Part shown: positions 4,213-22,004 of the stretch, one piece after another
Position numbering within the stretch: position 1 is the first letter of the stretch
Layout of the letters: each line of letters starts with the position of its first letter
The notes under the pieces: model-generated
What the model saw: only the letters and a program-made list of their open reading frames with translations
Told to the model about the DNA's origin: nothing
Database searches by the model: none
DNA from: an uncultured Alphaproteobacteria bacterium
GTDB taxonomy: Bacteria; Pseudomonadota; Alphaproteobacteria; RF32; CAG-239
Reading direction: 5' to 3'
DNA length: 64,000 nt
Assembly: GCA_944392235.1 (NCBI GenBank)
Contig: CALXVZ010000006.1
Location: forward strand, 22,664 to 86,663
Made by a program: the position numbers and the translations under genes

Positions 4213-5799
4213 CTAGCCCAATGCCGCATGAATAAGATTTTGAGCATATGGAGACTGAGGATGATTAAAGAGATTTTCAGCAGTATCATACTCAACAATC
4301 TCACCTTTTTTCATAACAGCAATATGATGTGCAATAGCCATTACAGCCCTCATATCATGAGATATGAACAAATAAGAAATCCCCGTTTTTTTTTGAATAT
4401 TTTTCAATAAATTAATAATTTCCGCTTGAACCGTAACATCCAGTGCAGACGTTGGCTCATCAAGAATCATAATTTTAGGTTCAACAACCAAAGCTCGAGC
4501 AATTGCAATACGTTGTCTTTGCCCTCCAGAAAATTCATGAGGATATTTATTTAAGATATCATCATCAACAAGTCCGACATTGCGAAGAACATTTTTTACC
4601 TTTTCTAAAATTTCACGTTTATTCAATTTCGGAAAATGAACTTTAATACCCTCACTAATAATTTCTAAGATTGTCATTCTAGGATTCAGCGAATTATAAG
4701 GGTCTTGAAAAACGACCTGAATATTTTTTCGAAAATCACATTCATTATTAACATGAACAAACTTTGCTGTTAAGATTTCACCTTTATAACGAATAAGATT
4801 AGCAAGACACATACCCAAAGTTGTTTTACCGGATCCTGACTCACCAACAACACCTAAAGTTTTTCCTTCATAAAGAGTAACAGATACGTTTTGCAAAGCA
4901 GAAATCGCTTTAACAACTTTTCCCAAAAAGTTTTTTTTCAAAGGATAAACAACCGATAAATTTCTTGCCTCCATAATTTTCCTTGCAGGAAAATCTGAAC
5001 GCTGACAAGTTTGCCTAAATGCGGCTAATAAGCTTTTAGTATATGAATGATTAGGAGCATTAAAGATATTACCAACACTCCCCTGTTCAACAATAACACC
5101 ACTTTTCATAACCAAAACCCGATTTGCAATTTTCCTAACAATATTCAAATCATGAGATATAAAGACTATAGCCATACCAAATTTCTGTTTCAAATTTAAA
5201 AGAAGTTCCAGAATTTGCTTTTGCACAGTAACATCAAGAGCTGTTGTCGGTTCATCTGCAATAAGAATTTTAGGATGATTAGCCACCGCCATTGCAATCA
5301 TAACACGTTGTCTTTGTCCACCAGAAAGTTCAAAAGGGAACGCCTTCATTCTTTCTCGAGGATTATCAATCCCCACCAATTTCAATAGATAACGAGCTTT
5401 TGCCCATGCTTTTCTAGCAGATATATTTTTATGCACTTTAATAATTTCCGCAATTTGTTCTCCAACACATTGAAGAGGATTAAGAGAACTCATTGGTTCT
5501 TGAAAAATCATACTAATATCATTTCCACGTATACTTTGCCATTCATTTTCACTTAAAGCCGTCAATTCTTTATTATTAAAAAGGATGGAGTTAGTGCTTT
5601 TATAGAGTACCTTTTTAGGATTAATCAGCCCCATAAGGGAAAGAGCGGTAACAGTTTTACCAGATCCAGACTCACCGACTATAGCAACAACCTCACCAGG
5701 ATTTACCACAAAAGAGCTATTATAAACAGCTGAAAAGAGTATACCTCTTTCATCAATAAACCTTACATTTAAGCTTTTAACATCCAAAACTGGCTCCAT
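4213..5799 (-). CDS. yejF: Fused double-ATPase subunit of an Opp/Dpp-type peptide ABC importer (YejF-like)
   Basis: Two complete ABC cassettes. Walker A GESGSGKT twice. Signatures LSGGQRQR and FSGGQRQR. Walker B LIADEPTTALD and MILDEPTSALD. Confidence 0.8.
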   Translation of the reverse strand: MEPVLDVKSLNVRFIDERGILFSAVYNSSFVVNPGEVVAIVGESGSGKTVTALSLMGLINPKKVLYKSTNSILFNNKELTALSENEWQSIRGNDISMIFQEPMSSLNPLQCVGEQIAEIIKVHKNISARKAWAKARYLLKLVGIDNPRERMKAFPFELSGGQRQRVMIAMAVANHPKILIADEPTTALDVTVQKQILELLLNLKQKFGMAIVFISHDLNIVRKIANRVLVMKSGVIVEQGSVGNIFNAPNHSYTKSLLAAFRQTCQRSDFPARKIMEARNLSVVYPLKKNFLGKVVKAISALQNVSVTLYEGKTLGVVGESGSGKTTLGMCLANLIRYKGEILTAKFVHVNNECDFRKNIQVVFQDPYNSLNPRMTILEIISEGIKVHFPKLNKREILEKVKNVLRNVGLVDDDILNKYPHEFSGGQRQRIAIARALVVEPKIMILDEPTSALDVTVQAEIINLLKNIQKKTGISYLFISHDMRAVMAIAHHIAVMKKGEIVEYDTAENLFNHPQSPYAQNLIHAALG

Positions 5800-5801
5800 A
5801 A

Positions 5802-6803
5802 TTATTTCCTCTTATCCAAAGCATCACGAACACCCTCACCAACAAAAATCAGAGCAGTCAATAGTGTTGATAAAACAAAAAAGATACTTAAACCAATCCA
5901 AGGAGCTTGCAAATTATCTTTACCTTGTCGCACAAGATCACCCAAAGAAGGATAATCATGCCCTAAACCCAACCCTAAAAAATCCAATGCAGTAAGAGCC
6001 ACAATAGCCCCTGCCAAAATAAACGGCACAAAAGTAACTGTAGTAACTAGTGCATTAGGCAAAATATGTCTCCAAATAATTCTTAAATTACTAACACCTA
6101 TAGCTTTAGCCGCCAAAACATATTCAAACTGTCTAGCCCGCAAGAATTCAGCACGCACCATTCCTGTTAATTCCGTCCACGAAAAGAGCAGCAATATAAA
6201 AAGAAGCGTCCAAAAAGTTGGAACAAAAACACTAGCAACAATAATCAAAATAAACATTTGCGGCATAGAATCCCAAATTTCAATAAACCGTTGAATAACT
6301 ATATCTATTTTTCCGCCAAAATAACCCTGAATTGCCCCCATAAAAATTCCAATACAAGAAGATAAAAAAGTTAATAAAAGAGCAAATGCAAAAGACAATC
6401 GAATACCATAAAGCAAGCGAGCTACAATATCTCTACCTTCCTCATCTGTTCCCAACCAATGTCTGGAAGATGGAGCTGCGGGAAATGGTTGATTGAGCTG
6501 ATAATCAACTGTATTATAAGAAAACTCAATAGGAGGCATAATCATAAATCCATTTGCATTAATATTAGCCTGAATAAGTTCATCTTTATAGTTAGCCTCA
6601 GTCGGAAAATCCCCGCCAAAACGAGCATCTGTATAAACTTTAAATACAGGAAAAAAATACTCATCTTGGTACTTCAAAAAAATAGGTTTATCATTAGCAA
6701 TAAACTCTGCAAAAACAGATAGAAATAACACTACCAAGAGTAAGCAATAGGCAACACGCCCTCTTTTATTTTTAATAAATTTACTCACACACATACAAAA
6801 CAC
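5802..6803 (-). CDS. yejE: Peptide ABC transporter permease (YejE/OppC-like)
   Basis: N-terminal anchor plus a long periplasmic loop ending in HWLGTDEEGRDIVARLLYG. EAA-type loop AAKAIGVSNLRIIWRHILPNA. Stop is 2 nt before the yejF start. Confidence 0.75.
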   Translation of the reverse strand: MFCMCVSKFIKNKRGRVAYCLLLVVLFLSVFAEFIANDKPIFLKYQDEYFFPVFKVYTDARFGGDFPTEANYKDELIQANINANGFMIMPPIEFSYNTVDYQLNQPFPAAPSSRHWLGTDEEGRDIVARLLYGIRLSFAFALLLTFLSSCIGIFMGAIQGYFGGKIDIVIQRFIEIWDSMPQMFILIIVASVFVPTFWTLLFILLLFSWTELTGMVRAEFLRARQFEYVLAAKAIGVSNLRIIWRHILPNALVTTVTFVPFILAGAIVALTALDFLGLGLGHDYPSLGDLVRQGKDNLQAPWIGLSIFFVLSTLLTALIFVGEGVRDALDKRK

Positions 6804-6925
6804 TCATCACTCTATATACAATAGAGAAAGTATCTAATCTTTGTATTTATTTCAACAACTAAGAATCTTTATACGCAAGATTTAAGATAATTTACGTTAT
6901 ACTTTCAAAGAGAATTATTTACATT

Positions 6926-9520
6926 TTAAGGAAGTAAGGTCGGAATATCTTCTATAGGAATCGCAACAGTTCCTACGGTTTTATCTAAATCATCGGTCAC
7001 TTCTTTCTGCGATTGCGAAGAGGATTCCACCGGTGCGACATTAACCTCTTGAACCGACGCCACTGGTTGTGTTTGAGGAGAAGTGTCTACTGGAGCAACA
7101 TTAACCTCTTGAGCTGATGCAGCTGGCTGTGCTTGAGGAGCGGTTGCTACTGGAGCAACATTAACCTCTTGAGCCGACGCAGCTGGTTGTGTTTGAGAAG
7201 AAGTTGCTACTGGAGCAACATTAACCTCTTGAGCTGATGCTGCTGGTTGTGTTTGAGAAGAAGTTGCTACCGGAGCAACATTAACCTCTTGAGCTGATGC
7301 TGCTGGTTGTGTTTGAGAAGAAGTTGCTACTGGAGCAACATTAACCTCTTGAGCTGATGCTGCTGGTTGTGTTTGAGAAGAAGTTGCTACCGGAGCAACA
7401 TTAACCTCTTGAGCCGACGCTGCTGATTGAAGAGAGGTATCAGTCGGCACATTTTTTTTCCCAGAAACAATATTTGAAGAGACCTCCTCATCAGAATTTT
7501 TAATAGGTTTCATCTCTCCTTTTTCATCAAATTCCAAAATAAGACTATCAGATGGAAGAAACATTCCTTCCGCTACATTATCTTCATTTTCGATTCCTTC
7601 TTTGTATTTTTCCCTATCATTTTTCTCTTTTTCAGCATTAACTTTCTGTTGATAAGCTTCCAATCTTTTTTGGTAAAGAGTTGCATTAGCTTTATAAAAT
7701 TCATACCAATCACGATAATTAGCTGCTATATTTGAAATTTTACTACCTCTAACAATAGAATTATTAATCAGGTTCTGTTTCAAACTAAGAGCTTCCTTTG
7801 TTGGCAATTTCATATTATCAATAGAATAGCAATAATCTTGATAACGAATAAGAGTTTTTGTAAAATCGCTAGCCAAACAAATATTTGCATTAATCAAGAA
7901 TTTCGGTTTTTTACCCTTTCTAATAGCCAAATTAACCAATTGATTTTTTACAAAATTCCCATATTTACCAGCCATCATACCCGACAATTCAGGAATAGGA
8001 CTAACCCCTTGAATAATAACATCTGTTCTATTATTTTTATCACTTTTACCCAAAGTATCCATAAATTCTTGCAAACGTCCGATAACACATTTAGCTTGAT
8101 CTGCATAAGCCTTTCTTTTTTCATCAATTCCACCATTTTGCAAAGAATTATCCTGAAGAGCCAACCAATCTTTTCTAGGTTTCAAGTTACAAAATTCATC
8201 ATACATATAAATATCAGAAGGTAAATCAACATAAACCATATAAATTTGTCCACCATTATCTTTTTTAAAGTCTTCTATAAGCTCATCAAAAATTGTTGGA
8301 GCCCCTTCAAAAGAAACTCTACGATTCTCAGAAGAAACTTTAATACCTTTAAGAGGAGACATATTTGCAAAAGTTTTAGCTATAGAATTGAAAGATTTAA
8401 CCTTTAAGCTCAATATCCATTCAGACAGAATAGCATAAGCATTTTGCTCAACTGATTTCGTTTTATCATAAATAGGAACAGTTTTGTAATTTTTAATAAC
8501 ACATCTGTCTGTATTTACTTTTCCTGATTTCAAACAAATATTAAATCCCGGCATAGCATAAGTACTTATACCATATCCATTATCCCAAAGATGTTTATAT
8601 AAAAGATTATCCTCTAAACTATAATAATCCAACGTTCCGTGAACAAAATCCCAAGTATTAATAAATTCAGCATATGATCTATTACCACTAGATGAGTTGG
8701 TATAATCAACTTGATTAAAAATATCAATCATATTACTAACTGTATCATCTTTTTTAACAAATGCATTTGGATATATTTCAAAATTATTGATTGCATAAAA
8801 TCCTAAAATTAAATCACGAAGTTCTCTAAAATTATAATCATTAACATTACTCAACAATTGATAAGAAGGAAATTTAGGCAACATAAAATAAATCAAATTA
8901 CCCGTTCTATCCTGTCCTGCTTTAGCAGATAAACCTTTAACCTCCGAATAATTATCTTTAGAAGCAATTATCTCTTCATTTTTCTTAATACCGATTCCCC
9001 CCGCAGATAAAAGAACGATACAAACAAAAAGCATAACAAAAGTCGAACGAAAGGCAAAAAATACAATAATAGCACAAATCAACCCAACAAACCATGCCCC
9101 AGGAATAATTCCGACAAAGGTCAACCAACCAGCCCTTTTCTCCAACCAATCTTCAACAAAGGTATCCACATTAAACAAAGCAAATTGATAAAAGAAACAC
9201 GCAACCATAACCATTGTGATAATAGCACATAATGCATTTTGAGCATCTTTAGAAAAAGACAGCAACAATATAAGCACAAAAGCTACAGCAAAGATTCCCG
9301 CTGCAATAACAACAACAGCCTGATTAAAAACACCATCTTCATACAGTTTGGCATTAATTGAATAAACAAACATAACCAAATCTATAATAAACAATAACGA
9401 AATATAAATAGCGCGTAATAATTTATCATAAAAATGATTAGCATCACCAGACCAACTAGCGAAACGACTAGATTTACTTTTTTTTCTTAAAATCAATGGT
9501 TGATTAACGGCCTCGTTCAT
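6926..9520 (-). CDS. Large membrane protein: about 5-6 N-terminal TM helices, roughly 500-aa extracytoplasmic domain, coiled-coil, C-terminal 20-aa tandem repeats
   Basis: 864-aa uninterrupted ORF. Hydrophobic N-terminal third. The topology recalls LtaS/EptA-type membrane-anchored sulfatase-fold enzymes, but the expected metal and nucleophile motifs are not visible. C-terminus carries AASAQEVNVAPVATSSQTQP seven times. Confidence 0.6.
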   Translation of the reverse strand: MNEAVNQPLILRKKSKSSRFASWSGDANHFYDKLLRAIYISLLFIIDLVMFVYSINAKLYEDGVFNQAVVVIAAGIFAVAFVLILLLSFSKDAQNALCAIITMVMVACFFYQFALFNVDTFVEDWLEKRAGWLTFVGIIPGAWFVGLICAIIVFFAFRSTFVMLFVCIVLLSAGGIGIKKNEEIIASKDNYSEVKGLSAKAGQDRTGNLIYFMLPKFPSYQLLSNVNDYNFRELRDLILGFYAINNFEIYPNAFVKKDDTVSNMIDIFNQVDYTNSSSGNRSYAEFINTWDFVHGTLDYYSLEDNLLYKHLWDNGYGISTYAMPGFNICLKSGKVNTDRCVIKNYKTVPIYDKTKSVEQNAYAILSEWILSLKVKSFNSIAKTFANMSPLKGIKVSSENRRVSFEGAPTIFDELIEDFKKDNGGQIYMVYVDLPSDIYMYDEFCNLKPRKDWLALQDNSLQNGGIDEKRKAYADQAKCVIGRLQEFMDTLGKSDKNNRTDVIIQGVSPIPELSGMMAGKYGNFVKNQLVNLAIRKGKKPKFLINANICLASDFTKTLIRYQDYCYSIDNMKLPTKEALSLKQNLINNSIVRGSKISNIAANYRDWYEFYKANATLYQKRLEAYQQKVNAEKEKNDREKYKEGIENEDNVAEGMFLPSDSLILEFDEKGEMKPIKNSDEEVSSNIVSGKKNVPTDTSLQSAASAQEVNVAPVATSSQTQPAASAQEVNVAPVATSSQTQPAASAQEVNVAPVATSSQTQPAASAQEVNVAPVATSSQTQPAASAQEVNVAPVATAPQAQPAASAQEVNVAPVDTSPQTQPVASVQEVNVAPVESSSQSQKEVTDDLDKTVGTVAIPIEDIPTLLP
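7022..7441 (-). repeat. Seven tandem copies of a 60-bp unit, in frame inside the 864-aa CDS
   Basis: The core acattaacctcttga recurs at exactly 60-bp spacing (7038, 7098, 7158, 7218, 7278, 7338, 7398). The four central copies differ only by isolated substitutions and the outer copies are more diverged. Confidence 0.95.
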
Positions 9521-9694
9521 CTTTACCTCGAGAGAAAATTAATAAAATTTACCATATAGTATTCCTATATTGCTAAACAAAAACTTAATCAAATAAAAAT
9601 ATATTTAAAAAAGGCTGAGTGAATAAACTTGAAATTAAAAAAAACAGCTGTTATAGTAAATATAGTTTATATTAAAAATAAACTATGATACGAA

Positions 9695-9976
9695 AAGCCG
9701 TATGAAATAGATATATTGGACCCGGGGGCGGTACCCGGCACCTCCACCAAAATAAATTATGGGGGTGAAATAGGTTAGACAGTATATAGTAAAGATATCT
9801 GAGCTGTATTCGGCAAGACACCACCGTTATCGGTTCAAAATAAATAAACGCAAATGATAATTTTGCACCAGTTGCTGTAGCTGCATAAGGCAAAGCAACA
9901 AACTAAATTCTTCTGACTTTGGTTAGTTGGAAGTGGGGAAAGAGCCACCTAGCAACAGAACGGCTCGTTTTTTTAC
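9695..9976 (+). ncRNA. ssrA: tmRNA (ssrA), circularly permuted two-piece type; 5' boundary approximate
   Basis: The acceptor piece ends with a T-arm (ccggg-ggcggta-cccgg) followed by CACCUCC-A-CCA (9739-9749). The coding piece starts with GGGGGUG at 9761 and pairs with that strand, giving a G3:U70 pair. Tag frame GCA AAT GAT AAT TTT GCA CCA GTT GCT GTA GCT GCA TAA (9850-9888) encodes ANDNFAPVAVAA. GC-rich relative to its flanks. Confidence 0.85.
9942..9974 (+). terminator. Intrinsic terminator at the 3' end of ssrA
   Basis: Stem gagcc/ggctc (9942-9946 / 9962-9966) followed by g and a run of seven T. Confidence 0.55.
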
Positions 9977-10006
9977 ATATAAGAAAACAGGGGTTTAAAA
10001 CAAACA

Positions 10007-10471
10007 ATGACTGAATTTGTAGAAGAGATAAACTACGACAAACTAATCGAAAAATCACTAAAACAAGTTGTGGTAGAAGCATTGAAGATAGCTGAAGCAC
10101 AGGGATTACCTGGAGAAAATCATTTTTACATCACCTTCAAAACTTCACATCCCGGAACAATCATACCCAAAGAACTACAGATTCAATATCCCGATAGTAT
10201 GACAATTGTCTTGCAACACCAATATTCCAATCTAATTGTTACAGACACTTTTTTCTCTGTAGAATTAAGTTTCGGAGGACACTTAGAAACATTAGTTATT
10301 CCCTTTGAAGCAATAACCTATTTTGCCGATCCCTATGCAAAATTCGGACTAAGTTTTTCTTTCTATGAAAACGGTGACGTTCACAGTTTAGATGACATAG
10401 ATCCTGAAAAGAAAGTATCCGGAGAAAGTGCACAAATTATTTCTTTTGATAGTTTCCGAAAGAAGAATTAA
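10007..10471 (+). CDS. sspB: ClpXP adaptor SspB (alphaproteobacterial type)
   Basis: GLPGENHFYITFKTSHPG, YPDSMTIVLQHQY and LVIPFEAITYFADPYAKFGLSF match the conserved SspB core as remembered from Caulobacter SspB. Acidic tail. Confidence 0.8.
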   Translation: MTEFVEEINYDKLIEKSLKQVVVEALKIAEAQGLPGENHFYITFKTSHPGTIIPKELQIQYPDSMTIVLQHQYSNLIVTDTFFSVELSFGGHLETLVIPFEAITYFADPYAKFGLSFSFYENGDVHSLDDIDPEKKVSGESAQIISFDSFRKKN

Positions 10472-10710
10472 TGAAAAAATATTCAGTTATAATAGCAAAC
10501 AGACACGCCACAAGTATTTCACTTGAAGAAGAATTCTATCAAGAGCTCTGTAATATAGCCGAAGAAGAAGGTATAACCATTAATCAGCTAATAACTCAGA
10601 TAGACTGTAAGAGAGAAACCCAAAATCTTTCCTCTGCACTAAGAATATATATACTAAAAAAACTTTCAGATAAATTAAAAAAATTCGAACAGAACAAACA
10701 ATCCAATTAA
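10471..10710 (+). CDS. Ribbon-helix-helix protein (RHH_4-like, common in Alphaproteobacteria)
   Basis: RHATSISLEEEFYQELCNIAEEEGITINQLITQID...NLSSALRIYIL matches the HRTS(I/V)SLE...NLSSAIR pattern. Its start overlaps the sspB stop (taATGa). Confidence 0.65.
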   Translation: MKKYSVIIANRHATSISLEEEFYQELCNIAEEEGITINQLITQIDCKRETQNLSSALRIYILKKLSDKLKKFEQNKQSN

Positions 10711-11480
10711 AAAAGATCTAAATCATCATCTTCTTCTGTTTCAATATCATTTTCATTTTGCTGAGATTTAGGCTGTTCAACTTTCAATTCTTCATCATTT
10801 TTATCTTTTGGCAAGAAAGAATTATCCAATTGATGAAGTGTAGATAACGGATCCCCTTCATTAACATTTTCCTCGCTTTTTTGTTTTTCCTCACTTTTTT
10901 GTTTTTGTGACGGGGTAGAAAGGATATTTTCCAAACCACCAGATATCAAGTTGCCCTCATCAACACTTAGTAAAGGAATATCAGCATTATTATTTTGCTC
11001 AACCTCTAATAACCCAGCATTTTCTTGCTCTAAAGATTGTTTTTTAAAACCAGATTTTCTCTTTTTTAAATTTTCTTTAGCTTTTTCCATTTCATAATCA
11101 CGATCAACTTTTTCATTATAATTTTCGCTCTTTGGACGTTCCGCCTCAAATTTTTCTTCCTCTAATTTCTTTTTAACCTCTGCTACTTCTTTTTTAATAC
11201 TCTCAGGAATAAATTCAGCTTCACCTTTTTCTACAGCTTTTGACACGAGATCAAACTTAACCTGATCATACATACTTTGATACCAAGAAAGAACATCATT
11301 TAAAGCCACACCTTGCTTCATCGGATAATAAACAATTCCAGCCGTCAAAACTAACAAAACAGACAACAACCATAACGGATGTCTCAAAATAAAAAGCAAC
11401 ACAAAAATAGGAAACGTAACAATGCTCAATAAAACATAAAAGAATTTAAAGATAGCACTTCTCTGTTTATTACCATCCAT
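10707..11480 (-). CDS. Hypothetical membrane-anchored acidic K/E-rich protein
   Basis: Two N-terminal TM helices, then a charged low-complexity tail ending in EEDDDLDLF. Lies 81 nt downstream of the GT-C-like paralog on the same strand. Confidence 0.45.
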   Translation of the reverse strand: MDGNKQRSAIFKFFYVLLSIVTFPIFVLLFILRHPLWLLSVLLVLTAGIVYYPMKQGVALNDVLSWYQSMYDQVKFDLVSKAVEKGEAEFIPESIKKEVAEVKKKLEEEKFEAERPKSENYNEKVDRDYEMEKAKENLKKRKSGFKKQSLEQENAGLLEVEQNNNADIPLLSVDEGNLISGGLENILSTPSQKQKSEEKQKSEENVNEGDPLSTLHQLDNSFLPKDKNDEELKVEQPKSQQNENDIETEEDDDLDLF

Positions 11481-11561: not shown

Positions 11562-13091
11562 TTATTTAATTTTTTCAACAAAATTCCATTGATCAGTTAT
11601 AGGATTATAAACACAAAGACGTTTATCATAAATAGGTTTTAATATATAAATGGAAGAATACGGGGTCTGTTGATAATAAGTTTCAACAATATCTTGATTG
11701 ATATAGTGAACAATTTCAGGCCGACCACTTTCATCAGAAAATTTATTAAAATAACTTTTTCCATAAATAAATTTAGGCTTGAGCATTAAAATCAATTTAT
11801 TGATATCTGGTTTCGGAGCAATACCTGTTTGCTCTCCAATAACATCAAGTTGTCCGATAAGTTGCCAATAATAAGCAGGATCTTTTCCAAAAATATTATA
11901 CATCATACCATCTCCATTAAACACATAATCACAAGGAGAAATATTGCGAACAATATAATTAGGTAGATATTGTTTATTCAACTGCAAAGTAAGTATATCT
12001 TTATAGAATAAAGTCGCCCTATAAAGCATTAAATATAATATGGAAACAGCTCCCCAAACCACTATTTTATTTTTCTCAAAAATTTTACAAACAAATGGAA
12101 TTCCTACAATAGCAGCCAAATAAACCAACCACCAGAAATAATATGAATAAGGAGAAAAATAAAATTTTCTTTGAATAAATTCAGAAACAAATAAAATAGC
12201 ACAAACCATCCAATATTTATTTTTATAAAAACAAGACGCTATAGTTCCTACAAAACCGACCCACATCAACACTGCCATATATGTAGGAAATTCGACAATT
12301 TTATTCATCTCAAACCCTTTTACAAGATTGAGATTAAATGTAAAATTTGAAACTAAATATAAATTAAAAATATCATAATAGCAAAGATAGCAAACAAATC
12401 CCCCTATCAAAAATAACGGCAAAATAAGAGCCTTAAACATATCACTTGTTTTGATATTTTTTGAAAACCAGAAATAAATACCAGATAACCCTAAAACAAA
12501 AAGCGGAAAAACGGCTTTTTGAGCAAAAAGAAAAGCAATAGTAAACCAAAGAAACGCCACAATTAAAGAAAATGCTTTTTGCTTATTTAAGTATGAAAAA
12601 TAATAATAAATACCTGCCACCAAAGCAAAAACCATATAATTATCAGGTCTAAAATCAACCGCATATAACTTATAGCTAGGAATAGCAACAATAGCTGTTG
12701 CATAGAGAGCCCAAAATTTATCACATAAGAATTCAGCACAAATACGATAAACATAAACTAAGGACTTAAGAAAAACCAAAAACGAAATCAGACAAACAAC
12801 TTCCGAAATAATTGAGTTATAAGCAAATAATCCTACTAAAGGAGCAAATAAGAACCATAACAAAGGATTATGATGTTGAAAAAAATCTCTATAAGGAACA
12901 TTCCCTTGAAAAACTAAGAAACTAGAATGAATATGTTCAATATTATCACCATTTTGAGTAGGAATATGAGCAATCAAAAAAACATAAAAAACAGAAACAA
13001 GAATAAGATCTAGAGCAACAGCGGCAGTAGAAGCTCTCTTAGTTAAGAAGTCCCTTGTAACACACCAATAATGTTTCAATCTAATATTCAT
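11562..13091 (-). CDS. Polytopic membrane protein, putative GT-C-fold glycosyltransferase (ArnT/PMT/DUF2029-like), paralog 2
   Basis: About 11-13 hydrophobic helices plus a C-terminal soluble domain of about 130 aa. First-loop motif GNVPYRDFFQHHNPLLWFL and C-terminal DPAYYWQLIGQLDVIG are shared with the upstream paralog. Its start overlaps that gene by 11 nt. Confidence 0.5.
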   Translation of the reverse strand: MNIRLKHYWCVTRDFLTKRASTAAVALDLILVSVFYVFLIAHIPTQNGDNIEHIHSSFLVFQGNVPYRDFFQHHNPLLWFLFAPLVGLFAYNSIISEVVCLISFLVFLKSLVYVYRICAEFLCDKFWALYATAIVAIPSYKLYAVDFRPDNYMVFALVAGIYYYFSYLNKQKAFSLIVAFLWFTIAFLFAQKAVFPLFVLGLSGIYFWFSKNIKTSDMFKALILPLFLIGGFVCYLCYYDIFNLYLVSNFTFNLNLVKGFEMNKIVEFPTYMAVLMWVGFVGTIASCFYKNKYWMVCAILFVSEFIQRKFYFSPYSYYFWWLVYLAAIVGIPFVCKIFEKNKIVVWGAVSILYLMLYRATLFYKDILTLQLNKQYLPNYIVRNISPCDYVFNGDGMMYNIFGKDPAYYWQLIGQLDVIGEQTGIAPKPDINKLILMLKPKFIYGKSYFNKFSDESGRPEIVHYINQDIVETYYQQTPYSSIYILKPIYDKRLCVYNPITDQWNFVEKIK

Positions 13092-14661
13092 ATCTCCATT
13101 TTCCTAATTTTGCATCAAAATAGCAATTATGTTTTTGATATTCTTTCTTTAACTCATACAATCCCACAGGATAAGGTAACTCCATTTCTTTCATCTCTTT
13201 AAAATCAAAATCAGAATCTCTTGCAAAAAGAGGAGAATAAAAAGTATCAATTAGATTCATATCAAAAGAATAAACCAACTGTTTTTTATTAAAGTAACTA
13301 TATATATCTTCCACCCAAATGTATTTTGGTTTATAATCTCTAATAATTTGATTTAAATCCTGAGGTTCATGAACACCTATTTCCTGCCCAATAAAATCAA
13401 GTCGCCCCAAAATAAACCAATAATACGCAGGATTTCTATTAAACAAAGCAAGATTTCCCCCATTACCGTTCAAAACGGTATCACATGCATTAGAATGGTT
13501 CATAATATATTCATTCATATTCACACTTTTTTTAGAATAAGAAAGATCACTAATCAAATAAAACACCATAAAAGCAGAATATGCCAAAACCTCTAATAAC
13601 ACTAAAACTTTTAACACTTTTATTTTTTGAGAAAGTTTACATAAACCAATAAAAACAATTGGCACCGCAAAGAAAAAAGTTTCATAATAGTAATAGACAT
13701 GAGGAGCAAAATAACAAATTTTTGTAATAAGGCTAACAGCAAAAAACCAACATAATATCTGGAAATATTTACCCAAATTAACATAAAGCAACACTGAAAA
13801 AAGAGTAGCCCCTCCAATAAATATATAGGCTAAATTCCAAGGAAGATTAAAGTCTAACATATAAATTTGAAAGACTTCCACCATTCTCCTATTAAAAAGG
13901 AAATTTAATTTAAAATAAGAATTAAGAGCATTCTCATAAAACAAATAAGCAATAAAAAACAGACCAGATAAAAAGGGTAGAGCTATTGCCCAAACAATAT
14001 CGCTCCATGACATCTGCCTTTTCATCAACATATAAAAAGAAATAAGAGCAACAATAGGGAAATAAAACAAAGCTTTTTGTGTAAACAAAAACGCACACCA
14101 AAACGCCAAATATGAATAAACCAAATAAGATTTTTTCTTATCTCGCAAATAAGAAAAGAAATAATAAATACCGATAGCCAAACATGTAAACATATAATTA
14201 TCGGGCTTAAAATAAGTATAATACAGAAAGACATTTGGCAATAATAAAATAATCACAGAAAATAAAGCAGCTGTTCGATCTGCTAAAAACTCCGAAATTA
14301 TCTTATAAACAAAGAAGAGTCCCAAAACAAAAAAAAGAAATGTAAGATACCCCATCATTCCAATAACAATAATATTACGCCCAACAGCATCAATCAAGGG
14401 TGCCATTAAAAACCATAATAAAGGATGATGATGTTCAAAAAAATCTCTATAAGGAACATCCCCTTGTGCAACCATATAGCTAGCATAAATATGTTCTTGA
14501 ATATCTCCTTCTGGCCAAAAGAAATAAAACGAAGCAGCCGCAATCAAAAACAAGATAGCAAGTAAAACTAAAAACAACAAAGTATCAGGCTTAAATAAAG
14601 TTTTAAGCCCGATACTTTTCTCTAATATCCTAACTTGACACTTTTTAAGATCTAGCGCCAT
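13081..14661 (-). CDS. Polytopic membrane protein, putative GT-C-fold glycosyltransferase, paralog 1
   Basis: Same architecture. Motifs GDVPYRDFFEHHHPLLWFL and NPAYYWFILGRLDFIG. Its start overlaps the malQ stop by 10 nt. Confidence 0.5.
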   Translation of the reverse strand: MALDLKKCQVRILEKSIGLKTLFKPDTLLFLVLLAILFLIAAASFYFFWPEGDIQEHIYASYMVAQGDVPYRDFFEHHHPLLWFLMAPLIDAVGRNIIVIGMMGYLTFLFFVLGLFFVYKIISEFLADRTAALFSVIILLLPNVFLYYTYFKPDNYMFTCLAIGIYYFFSYLRDKKKSYLVYSYLAFWCAFLFTQKALFYFPIVALISFYMLMKRQMSWSDIVWAIALPFLSGLFFIAYLFYENALNSYFKLNFLFNRRMVEVFQIYMLDFNLPWNLAYIFIGGATLFSVLLYVNLGKYFQILCWFFAVSLITKICYFAPHVYYYYETFFFAVPIVFIGLCKLSQKIKVLKVLVLLEVLAYSAFMVFYLISDLSYSKKSVNMNEYIMNHSNACDTVLNGNGGNLALFNRNPAYYWFILGRLDFIGQEIGVHEPQDLNQIIRDYKPKYIWVEDIYSYFNKKQLVYSFDMNLIDTFYSPLFARDSDFDFKEMKEMELPYPVGLYELKKEYQKHNCYFDAKLGKWRYEY

Positions 14662-16778
14662 TTTTTTACAGCTTTCAAATTACGCTGATAAGCCTCACTT
14701 GCTGCCATATCTTCAATATCAACAGGTAACTTTGTTCTCCAATTAGGATATTTATCAACATCTGTTCCCGGAAGGTTTTGAATTTTCATAGACTGAAAAA
14801 TATCTTCAGGTTGCAACAAAAGCACTTCACTTTTCGTTTTAGCCATATAGGAATGCACTGCTTCCTCTATACCTTCCGGATAACCTTCCCCAAATAAATA
14901 ATCACCTTTTCTAGGCTTATCCTGAGGCCAAACCCCTTCTCTATCCATTGCATTCAGCAGCAACCATCGTTCATGTTCACGCCATTTAAAATTATTATAT
15001 GTATCTTCTTGAGAAACCATTTTTAAATCACGCATAAGAGAGAGTTCTGAGCCAAACCACCAAGCTTTAAGAGGAGGCATATCATGAGTTCCGGCAGATG
15101 CAAAATACTTTTCTTCATATTCATCGGGAGCACAAAAATCCCCATCATTTTTACGACATTCTTTAAAGACACCTAAAGAATACATATTACGTTCTTTTAA
15201 CAGATTAACAAATCCCTCTGCAACATTTCCTATACATTCACCAACGACAACACATTTATTCAAGCAACTTTCAAGAGCAACAATATTAAGCATATCTTGA
15301 ACATTATAAGCTAAATAAGTTCCATCTTTACCTTGATCAGGAATAAGAAACAATCTAGACAATCCCATAACATGATCAATACGAATAGCACCTGCATAAC
15401 GCATATTAGCCCTTAAGATTTGGATAAAAGGTTTATAACAGCGTTCTTTAAGTTCAAAAGGATTAAAAGCACCCAAACCCCATTTTTGACCTGTAGGGAA
15501 ATTACTATCAGGCGGAGCCCCTGCACCGCTTTCCTGCATATAAAGATACTTATCACCCCAAACTTCAACACTATCTTTAGAAACACCCACAGGTAAATCT
15601 CTGTAAAGACCAATAATTAAATTTCTTTCTTTAATTTTCTTTTCCACCAAATTCAGTTGCCTATCAGCTTCAAATTGTAAAAATTTAAAGAAATCAATTT
15701 CATCAGAAAACTCTTCAACAAATTTACCAATAGCCGAATTCACAGAAGAATCCAACATAGGATTATATTTTCCCCAATCACCTGTTATAGCTCTCTGATG
15801 ATAAATAGATTGATAAACAGCCAATTTATTCAATTCTTCGGCATTAATTTTTTTAAATTTTTGAAATTCTTTATAATAACTATCCTGAGGATGCGTCATA
15901 AGTCTATCATAAATTTTCTGAAGAGCTTGTATTTTAGCATTATAAACAGCCGTATAGTCAATAATATCTCTATTACGCGCATTATTAACCACATCTAAAT
16001 TTTTATCAGCATCTTCATAAAAAGGAACTTTTTCTACATCAATATAAATAGGGTTCAAGAACAAACGACTAATTGAAGCATAAGGACTAGCGTTTTCAGG
16101 ATAATCATGCAACAACACATTTAAAGGGTTTAAACCAATAACATCACCACCGCTATCAGCCACCAAATCAACCATATTAATTAAATCAGTAAAATCCCCC
16201 ACGCCCCAATTTCTACGACTTTTCAAAGAATACAATTGAACAGTAAAGCCAAATAATTTATTTTTTCCTTTTTTATCTAAATGATAACAATGTCTTGGAG
16301 CAACAGCCAATTTAGTCACATATTCTTTAGAGTCAATTTTAATTTTAATATCATAATATCCAAAATCCAGTTTATTTTTAACTGTAATCAAATAATTTGT
16401 ATATAGTGTTGTAGCATTTTGCCAAGATTGACGTTCAGAAACCATCACATCAAGTAAAGAAAAGGAGTTACTCCCCTCTGGAGCATAGAAGACCTGCAAA
16501 TCATTGGATGAATATTTATTAGACAACACAATATCAAAAAAAACGTTATCTTGTTGAACAACATAAATCGGCTCAAGAGTTTTCAACCATCTACTTTTTT
16601 CAATTCTATCTAAAGAATGTTGAATTTCCTCATCATTTCCCGCTTTATATCCCATACTATTAATAAAGAAGCGCAATAAATCTTCACTAACATAGTTTGT
16701 CGACAAGGACTTAACAACATAAGTAAAACTCGTGCTTATACCTAATTTTTCCGCCAATTTATATAAAAGTTCACTCAT
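14652..16778 (-). CDS. malQ: 4-alpha-glucanotransferase (amylomaltase, GH77), long form
   Basis: GH77 signatures GAIRIDHVMGL, LYRDLPVGV, GAGAPPD and SAGTHDMPP. Length is similar to the long enterobacterial MalQ. Confidence 0.85.
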   Translation of the reverse strand: MSELLYKLAEKLGISTSFTYVVKSLSTNYVSEDLLRFFINSMGYKAGNDEEIQHSLDRIEKSRWLKTLEPIYVVQQDNVFFDIVLSNKYSSNDLQVFYAPEGSNSFSLLDVMVSERQSWQNATTLYTNYLITVKNKLDFGYYDIKIKIDSKEYVTKLAVAPRHCYHLDKKGKNKLFGFTVQLYSLKSRRNWGVGDFTDLINMVDLVADSGGDVIGLNPLNVLLHDYPENASPYASISRLFLNPIYIDVEKVPFYEDADKNLDVVNNARNRDIIDYTAVYNAKIQALQKIYDRLMTHPQDSYYKEFQKFKKINAEELNKLAVYQSIYHQRAITGDWGKYNPMLDSSVNSAIGKFVEEFSDEIDFFKFLQFEADRQLNLVEKKIKERNLIIGLYRDLPVGVSKDSVEVWGDKYLYMQESGAGAPPDSNFPTGQKWGLGAFNPFELKERCYKPFIQILRANMRYAGAIRIDHVMGLSRLFLIPDQGKDGTYLAYNVQDMLNIVALESCLNKCVVVGECIGNVAEGFVNLLKERNMYSLGVFKECRKNDGDFCAPDEYEEKYFASAGTHDMPPLKAWWFGSELSLMRDLKMVSQEDTYNNFKWREHERWLLLNAMDREGVWPQDKPRKGDYLFGEGYPEGIEEAVHSYMAKTKSEVLLLQPEDIFQSMKIQNLPGTDVDKYPNWRTKLPVDIEDMAASEAYQRNLKAVKKWR

Positions 16779-16787
16779 ACCACTCTC

Positions 16788-18863
16788 CTATTTTTTTATT
16801 TCAAAACACAAGACCGACCAAGCCGGCACCCAAATTTCCGCACCTGAAGCCAAACCATCAGCTTCAAATTTAGAAGAACTATCTAATAATAAATTCCATT
16901 TAAAAGATTTTTTAAAATTCGGTAACTTCCATTTCAAATGAGAACTCTGCGCATTAAGAATAACCATAAACAGTTTCTCGCGAGCTGTAACCACATAGGC
17001 CAAAGCCTTTCTGGTTGACTGATACCAATCAGCACTATTAAATTCCACACCTTTTTCTGTAAACCAAGCTAAATCTTTCAGTCCCAATTTAGGATCAATA
17101 ATTTGTCCTGTAAAAAAGTTTTTACGATTAAATATTCCCATCTTACGACGCAAGCGAATAAGATTTTTAACAAAACGCACATTAGCGATATCATCATTAC
17201 TTACAGCATCCCAAACCAAATAGGAAATAATATTATCATGACAATAAGCGTTATTATTACCAAACTGAGTATTTAAGAACTCATCACCTGAACGAATAAT
17301 TGGTGTTCCAAAAGAAAGAAGCAGAGTAGCAATCATCGCTTTGAGTCGAAGTTTTCTATTTTCCAAAACAGCTTTATTATCTGTATCCCCCTCTGCACCC
17401 GAATTATAGCTCCAATTAGCATCAGTTCCATCTCTATTATCTTCGCCATTTGCATAATTATGTTTATGATTATAACTAACCAAATCATATAACGTCATAC
17501 CATCATGAACAGTAAGATAATTAACAGAACTCCAAATAGTTCTCTTGCTTGGCCCAAAAATATCACTAGAGCCCGAAAGACGACTAGCTAATTCACCGAC
17601 TTGACGTTCATCACCTCTCCAAAAACGTCTAACAACATCTCTATACCGATCATTCCACTCCATACTTCCTGGAGGGAAAGCGCCAAGCTGATATCCACCG
17701 ATTCCAACATCCCAAGGTTCTGCCGCAATTTTGACCAATTGAAGCACCTCATCTTGCCGCAAGGACATTAAGAAACCGCTACTCTGATTAAATTCCTGTT
17801 TAACTCTAGCCAAAGAAGAAGCTAAATCAAGACGAAAACCATCGACATGCATTTCTTCAACCATATAACGCATAGAATCCATAACTAGTGTTAAGACATA
17901 CGGATTTTGCAGATTAAAAGAAGCCCCACAACCTGTGCTATCGTAATAATAGCGTTTATTAGTTCCATCAAGAGTATAATAGCTTTCGTTATCAATTCCT
18001 CTATAACAGAGAGTTGGTCCCATATGATTTCCTTCAAGAGTATGGTTATATACCATATCTAAAATTACTTCCAATCCACACTCATGAAATCTTTTAACCA
18101 TTTTCTTAAAGTTATTAATATCGGCACTAACCATATAACTTGGTTCAAGAGCAAAGAAGTTCAGAGTTTCATATCCCCAAAAATTATCTTTCATTCCGAC
18201 ATTACGTTCAGCCATAAATGCATTAACAGGCATAAGTTCAACTGAGGTAACGCCCAACCATTTCAAATAACCACAAACACTCCTACTTGCCAACCCAGAA
18301 AAAGTTCCTCGTTTTGCATCTTGCACTTTAGGATGTAACTTAGTGTATCCTTTAACATGGAGTTCATAAAAAACAGTTTTAGAAGCATCAATTTGAGGAG
18401 GAACATCTCCAGACCAATCAAAATCAGAACTATCAACAACCACAGACTTTGGCACATAAGGTGCACTATCTAGAGTTGAAAAAGATAAATCTTTATCTAA
18501 GCTATCAGGATCATAACCAAAAATAGCCTTATGCCAGATAAGGCGACCAATAATTTTCTTAGCATATGGATCTAATAATAATTTATTATGGTTAAATCTT
18601 TTACCTTTAGCAGGCTCATACGGACCATAAACACGATACCCATAAACCTGCCCAGGTGTAACACCTTCAAGATAAATATGCCAGATATTATTTTCCCGCA
18701 CAGGAAGTTCATAACGAGCTAATTCTTTCACTCCACTTTTATCAAACAAGCAAAGTTCCACTTTAGTAGCTCCCGCAGAGAACAGAGCAAAATTAACTCC
18801 CCACTCATCAGGTGTAGCCCCTAAAGGATAAGCACGACCTTCCCAAACTCTAATATCTGGCAT
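16788..18863 (-). CDS. glgX: Glycogen debranching enzyme GlgX (GH13)
   Basis: N-terminus RVWEGRAYPLGAT..GVNFALFS. GH13 regions DMVYNHT, GFRLDLAS, AEPWD and TVHDGMTLYDL. Confidence 0.85.
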   Translation of the reverse strand: MPDIRVWEGRAYPLGATPDEWGVNFALFSAGATKVELCLFDKSGVKELARYELPVRENNIWHIYLEGVTPGQVYGYRVYGPYEPAKGKRFNHNKLLLDPYAKKIIGRLIWHKAIFGYDPDSLDKDLSFSTLDSAPYVPKSVVVDSSDFDWSGDVPPQIDASKTVFYELHVKGYTKLHPKVQDAKRGTFSGLASRSVCGYLKWLGVTSVELMPVNAFMAERNVGMKDNFWGYETLNFFALEPSYMVSADINNFKKMVKRFHECGLEVILDMVYNHTLEGNHMGPTLCYRGIDNESYYTLDGTNKRYYYDSTGCGASFNLQNPYVLTLVMDSMRYMVEEMHVDGFRLDLASSLARVKQEFNQSSGFLMSLRQDEVLQLVKIAAEPWDVGIGGYQLGAFPPGSMEWNDRYRDVVRRFWRGDERQVGELASRLSGSSDIFGPSKRTIWSSVNYLTVHDGMTLYDLVSYNHKHNYANGEDNRDGTDANWSYNSGAEGDTDNKAVLENRKLRLKAMIATLLLSFGTPIIRSGDEFLNTQFGNNNAYCHDNIISYLVWDAVSNDDIANVRFVKNLIRLRRKMGIFNRKNFFTGQIIDPKLGLKDLAWFTEKGVEFNSADWYQSTRKALAYVVTAREKLFMVILNAQSSHLKWKLPNFKKSFKWNLLLDSSSKFEADGLASGAEIWVPAWSVLCFEIKK

Positions 18864-18884
18864 AATCCCTCACAACCTAATAAA

Positions 18885-21185
18885 TTAATAACGAATATGT
18901 TTCAACACAATTGTAGAAAGAGGCGGCAATGTAATTTCGATAGAATGAGGACGTCCATTCATAGACTCATCTGAAGCATACAATTCGCCCTCATTTTTAA
19001 CACCACTTCCCCAATAGTTTTTATCATCGCTATTAAAGATTTCTTGATATACACCACTATCCGGCACACCGATTTTAAAACCTCTTCTAACAACCGGAGT
19101 AAAGTTACAAACAACAACCATATAGTTATTTGAATCATGTCCTTTACGAATATAAGAAATAACACTATCATTAGCATTAGCGTGATCAATCCATTCAAAT
19201 CCTTTACTATCAAAATCTTCTTCAAAGAAAGCTGAATTACCTTTATACATCAAATTTAAATCACGCACACAATTTTGCACACCTTTATACATAGGATACT
19301 GCAACAAGTGCCACCTCAAACTTTCAGCAGAATTCCACTCCCAATCCTGTCCATATTCACACCCCATAAAGAGTAATTTTTTACCTGGATGCGTCCACAT
19401 AAAGCCATAATATGCTCTCAAATTAGCAAACTTCTGCCATTCATCACCCGGCATTTTACCAAGCATAGAACCTTTTCCATGAACAACTTCATCATGAGAA
19501 ATAGGCAAAACAAAATTCTCATTAAAAGCATACAACAAACCAAAAGTTAATTTACCATGTTCATATTTACGATAAACAGGATCTTTACTGATATAATTAA
19601 GGGTATCATTCATCCATCCCATATTCCATTTATAACCAAATCCCAATCCCCCCATAGAAGTAGGACGAGACACCATTGGCCAAGCAGTAGATTCTTCTGC
19701 ACAAGTCATTGTTCCAGGACATGTAGAATAACAGAGTTCATTCATTTTACGAATAAAAGCGATTGCCTCTAAATTTTCATTTCCGCCATAAATATTTGGT
19801 ATCCATTCACCATCTTTACGAGAATAGTCAAGATAGAGCATAGAAGCAACAGCATCAACACGAAGTCCATCAATATGATATTCTTTCAACCAATAAAGAG
19901 CGCTAGAGCAAAGAACATTACTTACTTCTGTTCTACCATAGTTATAGATTTTAGTTCCCCAATCTTTATGTTCACCTTTACGAGGGTCAGCATGTTCATA
20001 CAAATGTGTCCCATCAAATTCGACCAAACCATGTCCATCTTTAGGGAAATGAGCTGGCACCCAATCCATAATAACACCGATATTAGCCTGATGGAATTTA
20101 TCAATCATATATCTAAAGTCATCAGGATTACCAAAACGAGAGGTTGGAGCAAAAAGACCTGTAACCTGATATCCCCAGGAAGCATCTAAAGGATGTTCGC
20201 AAACAGGTAAAAATTCGACATGAGTAAATCCCATATTCATAACATAAGGCACAAGGCTATCAGCTAATTCTCTATAAGTTAAAAATTCTGAACCATTTTC
20301 ACCTTTTCTACGCCAAGATCCCAAATGAACTTCGTAAATAGACATTGGTCTATCAAAACTATTATATGAAGCACGATAACTCATCCAATCATTATCATTC
20401 CATTTATAGTGATTAAGATCATAAACAATAGAAGCGGTATTAGGTCTAACCTCTGAATAGAAAGCCATAGGATCGCTTTTTGTTAAAATATAACCTTGCT
20501 GAGTTTTAACTTCAAATTTATAGTATTCACCTTCAGAAATATTTGGAATAAATATATCCCAAACTCCACAATTAAAATGTTTACGCATAACATTAACGCG
20601 TCCGTCCCAATTATTAAAAGCGCCAATAACAGAAACGCGTTTAGCATTTGGAGCCCAAACAGAAAAACCTACACCTTTAACCCCATTAAGTTCCATTACA
20701 TGAGCACCAAGTTTTTTATATAGATCTAAGTGATTACCTTCAGCAAAAAGGTATTCATCTATATCACCCAAGATTGAAGGAAAAGAATAGGCATCCTCCT
20801 CAATATAAACTTCATTTTTATCGTTAGTAATTTTAAACTTATGAGAAAAGTTATCAGTATTCATCATTCCCAAATTAATTTGATAAAACCCTCTACTATC
20901 AAGCATAGTCATCAAACCCAAAGAATTATTTTGAGCATCCAATAACTCTATTGATTTTGTTTTAGGTTTATAAGCACGAATAAAGACTTCTTTACTTCCC
21001 TTATCACGATGAACACCCAACACAGCCATTACATTTTCATAATCGCCGTTAATAATGCATTCCATTTCATTTTTCGACAGTAAATTATTCATATTCCCCT
21101 CACCACAAGAACTCAAGACAGCAAAGTCACAAAGTCCATTGTTATTTTCATTTTTTACAGTTTGATTTTTAACTGTGTTGGCCAT
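18885..21185 (-). CDS. glgB: 1,4-alpha-glucan branching enzyme GlgB (GH13)
   Basis: GH13 regions [27 protein letters not shown] and [10 protein letters not shown]. Confidence 0.9.
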
Positions 21186-21788
21186 AACTATAACTCCAAA
21201 ATATAAATAAAAAATACGTTACAAAACATGTATAAAAACAAAACAAATAAATTGCAAGAATTTTGTTATTTTTTTTCACCATTCCACAACCATTTTTCCT
21301 TTTAAAAACAACATGATTACCCACATCAAAACATAGTTCTATTTTTTAAAACAACATCGCAACAAAAAACAAAAAAATAACATAAACAAGACATCCAAAT
21401 ACTATGCAAAAATATCTTTAAACTCACTACATTAAAGACACGAATAAAAAGATAATATTTTTGCACAAGAAAAGAATTTTTTTTTCATAAAAATTTTATT
21501 TAAACAAAAACAGTATTTTTCGAACTTCCATACAGAAAAATTTGCACTAAAGTTTTACAAAAAAAAGCATAAAAAACAAATAGATATCAAACAAAAGATT
21601 ATCAAAAACAAATAACTTATTGTCATTATTATTTTTTTTAATATTTCTCTCTTTTTTTAATGATTTTTTAATCTATTTACATATATAAGATATCTACCAA
21701 CAAAAACGAAAAAAATTCGTATTTACAAAATAAAAATTATATTTATACTAACACTGTTTTTACAACGAAATTATTTGGAGATATTGAA

Positions 21789-22004
21789 ATGACATTCAAT
21801 GAAAATTTAATCAGAGAAGCTGCTTACTACAATTGGCAAAATGCTGGTTGCCCTTTTGGTCAAGATGAAAAATTCTGGAATATGGCTATTGAACAAATTT
21901 ATGGTTCAAAAGCAACAAAATCTTGCTGCAGTAAAGCTAATTCCACAAAGAAGACAGCTACTAGCAAAAAAGCTACTACTTCTAAAGCTAAATTAAAGAA
22001 GTAA
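21789..22004 (+). CDS. DUF2934-like small protein with a K/S/T-rich tail
   Basis: IREAAYYNWQNAGCPFGQDEKFWNMAIEQI fits the DUF2934 pattern (IRErAY..W...G.P.G.d..hW..Ae). GGAG RBS upstream and a terminator downstream. Confidence 0.6.
   Translation: MTFNENLIREAAYYNWQNAGCPFGQDEKFWNMAIEQIYGSKATKSCCSKANSTKKTATSKKATTSKAKLKK

Follow-up and report, generated by a model that had tools for sequence, protein, structure and literature searches.

The locus analysed here lies in a stretch of 64,000 nucleotides (nt) from an uncultured member of the Alphaproteobacteria (GTDB order RF32, family CAG-239; contig CALXVZ010000006.1), referred to below as the window. It consists of the glucan-remodelling genes glgB, glgX and malQ, followed on the same strand by two genes for related polytopic membrane proteins, which we call paralog A and paralog B (Table 1). 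The first-pass annotation of this DNA had described a single, translationally coupled operon, in which a cytoplasmic set of glucan-editing enzymes is joined to duplicated glycosyltransferases of the GT-C type and may mark a pathway leading from malto-oligosaccharide turnover to an envelope glycan or glycolipid. The open reading frame (ORF) coordinates reproduce the five-gene layout exactly, all on the minus strand, with gaps of 21 nt between glgB and glgX and 9 nt between glgX and malQ, a 10-nt overlap of the malQ stop with the ATG of paralog A, and an 11-nt overlap of paralogs A and B. The start of paralog B has a GGAG just 5' of the ATG, and the ATG of paralog A, at 14661, is preceded only by a weak Shine-Dalgarno-like GAAAG. 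A sixth co-directional gene, overlooked in the first-pass annotation and termed here p257, begins 81 nt 3' of paralog B; its product has an N-terminal transmembrane (TM) segment and a long Lys/Glu-rich low-complexity tail, the gene has its own ribosome-binding site (AAGGAG), and no family of Pfam or NCBIfam matches it. Upstream of glgB there is a very AT-rich spacer of about 600 nt (21186-21788), beyond which lies a divergent gene for a small DUF2934 protein. The G+C content of the window is about 33%. Rfam detects no RNA family in this spacer or in the operon, and its only matches in the whole window, an alpha-type two-piece transfer-messenger RNA (tmRNA) and one tRNA, are both outside the operon.

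Table 1. Features of the locus, with positions counted from the first nucleotide of the window (aa, amino acids)
Feature	Position	Strand	Size and basis of assignment
p257, membrane/low-complexity protein	10707-11480	-	257 aa; called ORF; kept after B in most relatives
Paralog B, family of A, glg-linked orthogroup	11562-13091	-	509 aa; identity to A, invariant residues
Paralog A, GT-C glycosyltransferase, PMT_2/ArnT-like	13081-14661	-	526 aa; PMT_2, AlphaFold2, Foldseek
Terminator-like hairpin with T-rich tail	14565-14618	-	17-bp stem 14618-14579, tail GTTGTTTTTAGTTT; scan match and RNA fold
malQ, 4-alpha-glucanotransferase	14652-16778	-	708 aa; TIGR00217; Pfam Glyco_hydro_77
glgX, glycogen debranching enzyme	16788-18863	-	691 aa; TIGR02100
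glgB, 1,4-alpha-glucan branching enzyme	18885-21185	-	766 aa; NCBIfam NF003811; Pfam GlgB_N, CBM_48, Alpha-amylase, Alpha-amylase_C
DUF2934 gene, divergent from glgB	21789-22004	+	71 aa; PF11154

The identities of the three glucan enzymes were judged by the curated equivalog cut-offs of NCBIfam, which all of them exceed: GlgB scores 1021 bits (NF003811, cut-off 741), GlgX 884 bits (TIGR02100, cut-off 641) and MalQ 387 bits (TIGR00217, cut-off 206; Glyco_hydro_77 E = 2e-102). None of the three has a signal peptide, which for GlgB implies a cytoplasmic location, and together they would branch, debranch and disproportionate cytoplasmic alpha-1,4/1,6-glucans (or maltodextrin). The classical glycogen loci, such as glgBXCAP with the separate malPQ in E. 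coli or glgA-treZ-malQ-treY-glgX in Pseudomonas, share with the window the canonical GlgB, GlgX and MalQ equivalogs, and the clustering of glgX with malQ has precedents, with models in NCBIfam even for fused GlgX/MalQ proteins (PRK14510). In contrast to these loci, there is no glgC, glgA or glgP in the operon, as the first-pass annotation had stated for glgA and glgC, and a Pfam scan of the window ORFs of at least 150 aa revealed none of these genes and no GT2 enzyme. The unit that is conserved in the clade, and also in an outgroup locus (L091), is instead the glgB-glgX-malQ trio with the divergent DUF2934 gene. The pairing of DUF2934 with glgB persists in L091 although all other flanks have changed there, and DUF2934 may thus be the real conserved partner of the glg operon, perhaps a regulator. 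Some relatives carry insertions between glgB and glgX, of about 3 kb in L017 (2610-5637) and of about 0.4-0.6 kb in L010, L012 and L023, so the glg operon itself varies within the clade.

An alignment of paralogs A and B covers 483 aa with 33% identity (E = 3e-81), which makes them true paralogs, and it contains both motifs that had been pointed out in them, QG(D/N)VPYRDFF(E/Q)HH(H/N)PLLWFL and (N/D)PAYYW..G.LD.IG. Paralog A passes the gathering threshold of Pfam PMT_2 (PF13231) with 31.1 bits against 26.1 and B falls just below it with 24.1 bits, while scores of 31.9 and 40.0 bits were obtained by further paralogs of the family, from the related loci L079 and L041. For A, an AlphaFold2 model based on an alignment of 34 family sequences has a predicted local distance difference test score (pLDDT) of 87.5 and a predicted template modelling score (pTM) of 0.89; residues 1-19 have pLDDT <50 and are predicted to be disordered. 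Comparison of this model with the PDB by Foldseek returned GT-C enzymes at all of the top 40 positions, with probability 1.00 and TM-scores up to 0.55; the list includes STT3/PglB/AglB, ALG9, ArnT, DPY19, Pmt4, Emb, AftA and PimE. The best TM-scores belong to ArnT (5f15, 0.55/0.54) and the best E-values to STT3/PglB/AglB (1.5e-6 to 8e-4, in whole-protein alignments). Searches of all PDB chains with the sequence of A and with the family profile gave nothing significant (the best matches were HhaI methylase with E = 0.19 and PimE with E = 1.1), and the GT-C relationship is visible by comparison of folds only, not by sequence search of the PDB.

Residues D53, E56, Y71, D73, F74, F75, H77, H78, P80, P153, D154, G164, Q195 and N257 are invariant in the 34-sequence alignment, N253 is likewise counted among the invariant positions, and all of these residues are present in B. 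D53 and E56 are located 7-10 residues after TM1 and D73 in the first loop, within the pattern Y71-x-D73-F-F-x-H77-H78-x-P80, i.e. conserved acidic residues occupy the positions expected for GT-C enzymes. The helices of the model, oriented by their basic residues (the N-terminal tail with its six K/R, KK175-176 and KR214-215) according to the positive-inside rule, yield a topology with about 11 TM helices, a cytoplasmic N-terminus and a predicted periplasmic C-terminal domain of 150 aa, in which every invariant residue is on the predicted periplasmic side. Modelled alone, the C-terminal domain (151 aa) is again confident (pLDDT 89.6). Judged by the Pfam match and the modelled fold of A, by the set of invariant acidic and histidine residues on the predicted periplasmic side, and by homology to A in the case of B, both proteins are genuine GT-C-type membrane glycosyltransferases; the assignment that had been proposed from topology and motif resemblance therefore stands, and the transporter fold considered as its alternative did not appear among the top 40 matches.

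Among the known members of this fold class, ArnT (GT83, the lipid A 4-amino-arabinose transferase) resembles A and B in size (about 500-550 aa), in its multi-TM GT-C fold, in the Asp just after TM1, in a second acidic residue where a later TM helix meets the periplasm and in the possession of a periplasmic C-terminal domain, and A shares with the COG1807/PMT_2 group its match to PMT_2. On the other hand, A and B match no ArnT sequence in the PDB even by profile and no NCBIfam ArnT model at E <=1, they have no arnBCADTEF-type neighbors, and their family is distinguished by the VPYRDFFxHHxPLLW motif, by a C-terminal domain lacking a solved structural relative and by its copy number. Neither sequence nor gene context thus places them in the ArnT/GT83 family, and the resemblance is one of structure only. 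With STT3/PglB/AglB (GT66) paralog A shares the Asp after TM1, and its YYW413-415, about 35 residues past the last TM helix, loosely recalls the WWDYG motif; however, A has neither an STT3 match in Pfam nor WWDYG itself, the TM-scores are only 0.42-0.52 and there is no pgl-type cluster, which argues against membership among the GT66 oligosaccharyltransferases. A closer functional parallel is offered by Rhizobium, whose set of ArnT-like enzymes includes RgtC and RgtD; this set acts on the core and lipid A of one envelope glycolipid, where each enzyme serves its own position, and the genes are partly in tandem. RgtA and RgtB of Rhizobium leguminosarum are ArnT-like galacturonic acid transferases acting on the Kdo sugar of the lipopolysaccharide (LPS) core (PMC4402001). 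As an alphaproteobacterial, multi-paralog ArnT-like set, RgtA-D would be the best functional analogy for the family described here; in contrast to paralog B, no linkage of these genes to glg genes is known. In summary, A and B represent a lineage-expanded member of an already known, ArnT/PMT_2-like kind of enzyme beside a canonical glucan operon.

The extent of this expansion was analyzed by a tblastn survey and a neighbor-joining tree of 111 family members, and by a search for the motif DFF[EQ]HH[HN]P in one-genome-per-species contigs, where it occurs in 415 coding stretches. The tree resolves at least seven orthogroups: besides A and B, these are a singleton and the members of two distinct tandem pairs. 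Genomes carry 5-7 copies, and single metagenome-assembled genomes (MAGs) have up to seven at four loci (e.g. E19__bin231, with loci L007, L047, L073 and L076); the relatives are all MAGs from human, mouse and ruminant gut. An exhaustive profile search collected 825 clusters at E <=1e-30 and 10,485 at E <=1e-3, at which level the family merges into generic PMT_2/PMT; it overturned the small family of 77 clusters suggested by a word-index search. Outside the gut clade, a more distant alphaproteobacterial MAG (L088, 5505-9913) has three family members in tandem beside exbB-exbD, so tandem amplification of the family recurs beyond the clade studied here.

Orthologs of B (53-67% identity) are found 3' of malQ in all 32 glg-containing loci, and this orthogroup occurs only next to malQ. 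Orthologs of A (36-52% identity), the most divergent orthogroup, are present in only about a dozen related genomes and are missing from the nearest relatives of the window as measured by GlgB (93% identity). B shares about 40% identity with the unlinked singleton copies but only 33% with A, and both the tree and these identities rule out a recent tandem duplication, so that the description of A and B as a duplicated pair does not hold in that sense. A recent insertion of A into this genome is also unlikely, since the tree of A mirrors that of B; for the same reason A appears to be ancestral and to have been lost repeatedly. Homologs of p257 (36-61% identity) directly follow the B ortholog in most glg-linked loci and are found at no other GT-C locus.

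The linkage of glg and GT-C genes is thus not peculiar to the window, a possibility that the first-pass annotation had raised against its own interpretation, as it is shared by 32 loci of related gut and rumen MAGs. It is, however, part of a block of about 20 kb with the order Band7-NfeD-MFS-glgB-glgX-malQ-(A)-B-p257-SspB-864-aa ORF-ABC permease-ABC ATPase (MFS, major facilitator superfamily; ABC, ATP-binding cassette), which is syntenic in nearly every related locus, and therefore the glg/GT-C junction is no better conserved than the junctions between unrelated genes. Other copies of the family are packed just as tightly against other genes: in L079 (nth-[GT-C][GT-C]-uvrC-pgsA) uvrC starts at the base after the GT-C stop, and in L041 a singleton GT-C gene shares 32 nt with a PHO4 phosphate-transporter gene and is situated before rpsB and a gene for a type II topoisomerase B subunit (gyrB/parE-like). 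In the outgroup locus L091 (MalQ 50% identical, 40% GC) DUF2934/glgB-glgX-malQ is followed by a convergent SpoU gene, and the glg locus contains no GT-C gene. In the distant loci inspected, family members adjoin restriction-modification, ExbBD or other genes, but never glg genes. A pathway from glucan to envelope can hardly be read from the layout when the Band7, NfeD, MFS, SspB and ABC neighbors are equally conserved, when other copies adjoin uvrC or PHO4 as closely and when the outgroup has glgB-glgX-malQ alone. In the literature we came across neither a glg operon described as containing a GT-C gene nor a genomic account of this lineage's envelope.

A further feature that had been overlooked is a hairpin within the first 83 nt of paralog A, which begins 33 nt after the malQ stop and spans codons 15-28 of the annotated ORF. 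Its fold has -24.6 kcal/mol (z = -6.9), and none of 200 shuffled sequences is as stable. Seventeen of the 32 related loci have a homologous hairpin 3' of malQ, with compensatory changes in 9 of the 16 consensus pairs; in most relatives with a single GT-C gene it is intergenic and followed by a spacer of 80-210 nt, while in the window and in L011 the ORF of paralog A runs through it. We considered a dispersed element resembling repetitive extragenic palindromes and excluded it, because the hairpin occurs once per locus and always after malQ. As to whether the locus yields a single transcript, the tight junctions favor one, as the first-pass annotation had proposed, but the conserved terminator-like hairpin in part supplies the internal terminator that it had named as speaking against its interpretation. 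In many relatives this element parts malQ from the GT-C genes, which again speaks against reading a pathway from the layout.

We consider it probable that the locus consists of two separable modules, which an inherited gene order keeps adjacent in a single lineage of low-GC, uncultured Alphaproteobacteria from gut and rumen; the adjacency is read in this way because A and B belong to a family whose 5-7 copies are scattered among unrelated housekeeping genes. The glgB-glgX-malQ module would end in the hairpin and its U-tract, which most likely terminate or attenuate transcription. The other module would comprise A, B and perhaps p257, with no substrate flowing between the two. Judging from the fold and from the side on which the conserved residues lie, a polyprenyl-phosphate-sugar is the most likely donor of each GT-C enzyme, which would pass a single sugar from it to an envelope acceptor at the periplasmic face; candidate acceptors are lipid A or the LPS core, glycolipids of another kind and periplasmic proteins, and several paralogs may act on different positions, as in the case of RgtA-D. 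The GT-C genes of the window have no visible promoter of their own; their expression would probably be low and depend on read-through of the hairpin together with translational coupling at the two overlaps.

Several observations weigh against this separation of modules. The malQ/GT-C adjacency is unbroken in 32 of 32 clade loci, and in L092 (GCA_052845415.1) it has been kept even though the downstream genes were swapped for ankyrin-repeat genes. About 15 loci lack the hairpin and have the GT-C gene <=25 nt from malQ, so that much of the lineage is likely to co-transcribe the two, possibly as a sign of co-regulation. A scan for promoters has no power in DNA so rich in AT (56 sites, with 58 expected by chance), and an internal promoter can thus be neither located nor excluded. 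Finally, the C-terminal domain of A submitted alone to Foldseek has no PDB match with E <1 (and hence no match to a carbohydrate-binding module). The same adjacency, together with the overlapping or abutting junctions in the window genome and about 15 relatives, would be expected if the modules were functionally coupled, i.e. if B (and A where present) acted on the product of the glg enzymes, passing glucose or malto-oligosaccharide via polyprenyl phosphate to an LPS or other envelope acceptor, with a surface or periplasmic alpha-glucan as the outcome. Such coupling has a precedent in Aeromonas hydrophila, where a surface alpha-glucan derived from GlgA/GlgC requires WecP and owes its attachment to the O-antigen ligase WaaL, so that a glycogen-like, cytoplasmic glucan is tied to undecaprenyl-phosphate machinery and to a polytopic, periplasm-facing transferase (PMC3341381; PMC11046441); how cytoplasmic alpha-glucan reaches the surface in mycobacteria is still unknown according to a review (PMC11046441). 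In Aeromonas, however, the link is genetic rather than an operon fusion and the transferase is WaaL rather than a PMT_2-type enzyme, whereas the locus in the window has no WecP-like initiator or flippase nearby. Indeed, no initiating phosphoglycosyltransferase, flippase or GT2 polyprenyl-phosphate-sugar synthase was found at the locus or in the 64-kb window, the glucan enzymes lack signal peptides, and the C-terminal domain is unlike any carbohydrate-binding module or solved fold. With the equally conserved unrelated neighbors, the sister paralogs as tight beside uvrC and PHO4, the hairpin retained between malQ and the GT-C genes, and the outgroup operon devoid of a GT-C gene, these points leave functional coupling decidedly unlikely. 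Its most specific form, in which gut Alphaproteobacteria would possess a pathway to a surface or periplasmic alpha-glucan and B (with A as an accessory) would supply its missing envelope step, strikes us as very unlikely, and the same low standing applies to the scheme whereby the glucan would be loaded onto polyprenyl phosphate, flipped, and moved by B onto LPS or another anchor, as a GT-C counterpart of WecP/WaaL. If true, this link could serve as a model or handle for the export of capsular alpha-glucan.

A more complete separation than the one we favor would make the two sets independent transcription units, the hairpin being a full terminator, paralog A starting downstream of it (e.g. at the TTG codons 28/29), the overlap with malQ being an artefact of ORF calling and the GT-C genes having their own promoter. 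The strength of the hairpin and its T-rich tail, its intergenic position before the spacer in most single-GT-C relatives, the predicted disorder of residues 1-19 of A and the weak GAAAG before ATG 14661 are all compatible with such an arrangement. Yet a start after the hairpin would lose the six K/R that orient TM1 and has no ribosome-binding site, the start codons of all A orthologs are no more than about 25 nt from the malQ stop and leave a basic N-terminal tail of 20-27 aa in place, L011 codes through its hairpin with a similar peptide (SIRQKLRFLPDA, compared with SIGLKTLFKPDT in the window), and no promoter can be distinguished from chance; on balance we regard complete independence as unlikely. 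As for the chemistry, some homologs carry the NCBI name 'glycosyltransferase family 39 protein', which together with the PMT_2 match and the presence of Pmt4 and Pmt1-Pmt2 among the Foldseek matches might suggest protein O-mannosyltransferases (CAZy GT39), with A and B glycosylating Ser/Thr of secreted or periplasmic proteins and not lipid A or LPS. This name stems from automatic annotation based on PMT_2, and another member is named '4-amino-4-deoxy-L-arabinose transferase and related glycosyltransferase of PMT family', i.e. after ArnT. Moreover, neither PF02366 nor MIR matches A or B at E <=1, the Pmt structures rank below STT3, ALG9 and ArnT with alignments of only about 260 columns, and 5-7 paralogs per genome would fit the stepwise decoration of a glycolipid better than a single protein mannosyltransferase, which makes membership in GT39 highly improbable.

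The remainder of the window is ordinary chromosome (PBP2-RodA, an ABC transporter, rpoA-adk-secY, Lnt, YbeY, PhoH, a subtilase and EF-P), in which a few features deserve mention. The ssrA gene for the two-piece, alphaproteobacterial tmRNA (9625-9970, plus strand) is followed after 36 nt by sspB (10007-10471, plus strand), the gene for the adaptor by which SsrA-tagged proteins are handed to ClpXP; 3' of sspB lies a small RHH_4 gene, and the position of sspB next to p257 is kept across the clade. The 864-aa ORF of the syntenic block (6926-9520, minus strand), just upstream of the ABC permease/ATPase pair, has no Pfam match at E <=0.01, yet almost every related MAG locus has a counterpart of 44-69% identity at this place. 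Likewise without a Pfam match is a 474-aa ORF (34953-36377, plus strand) flanked by the secY-adk-rpoA cluster and by a gene for a tRNA methyltransferase. The products of three overlapping genes at 48227-51160 (minus strand) are a protein resembling Ser/Thr protein kinases (490 aa), a PP2C phosphatase (268 aa) and a protein of 230 aa that belongs to no family; these genes may form a eukaryote-like signalling cassette. A protein similar to the large subunit of [FeFe]-hydrogenase with several 4Fe-4S domains (52046-53503, minus strand) is consistent with an anaerobic, fermentative life in the gut. In the related locus L092 a run of ankyrin-repeat and unannotated proteins (5716-10248), unusual in free-living bacteria, follows two GT-C paralogs; judged from the genes, it hints at interaction with a eukaryotic host or a protist.

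The main lesson of this locus is one of caution against over-reading gene overlap in compact genomes, given that members of one family also overlap a phosphate-transporter gene and abut uvrC. The covarying hairpin after malQ persists whether it is intergenic or inside coding sequence. The gut bacteria of this lineage carry a glgB-glgX-malQ unit without glgA or glgC. Next to it, our analysis defines a lineage-expanded, ArnT-like GT-C family with the VPYRDFFxHHxPLLW loop motif, up to seven paralogs per genome and a predicted periplasmic C-terminal domain without a structural relative in the PDB, hosted by uncultured Alphaproteobacteria that are widespread in the human, mouse and ruminant gut. 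The expansion of this family points to an elaborate, uncharacterised envelope glycan, which could affect recognition by the host.

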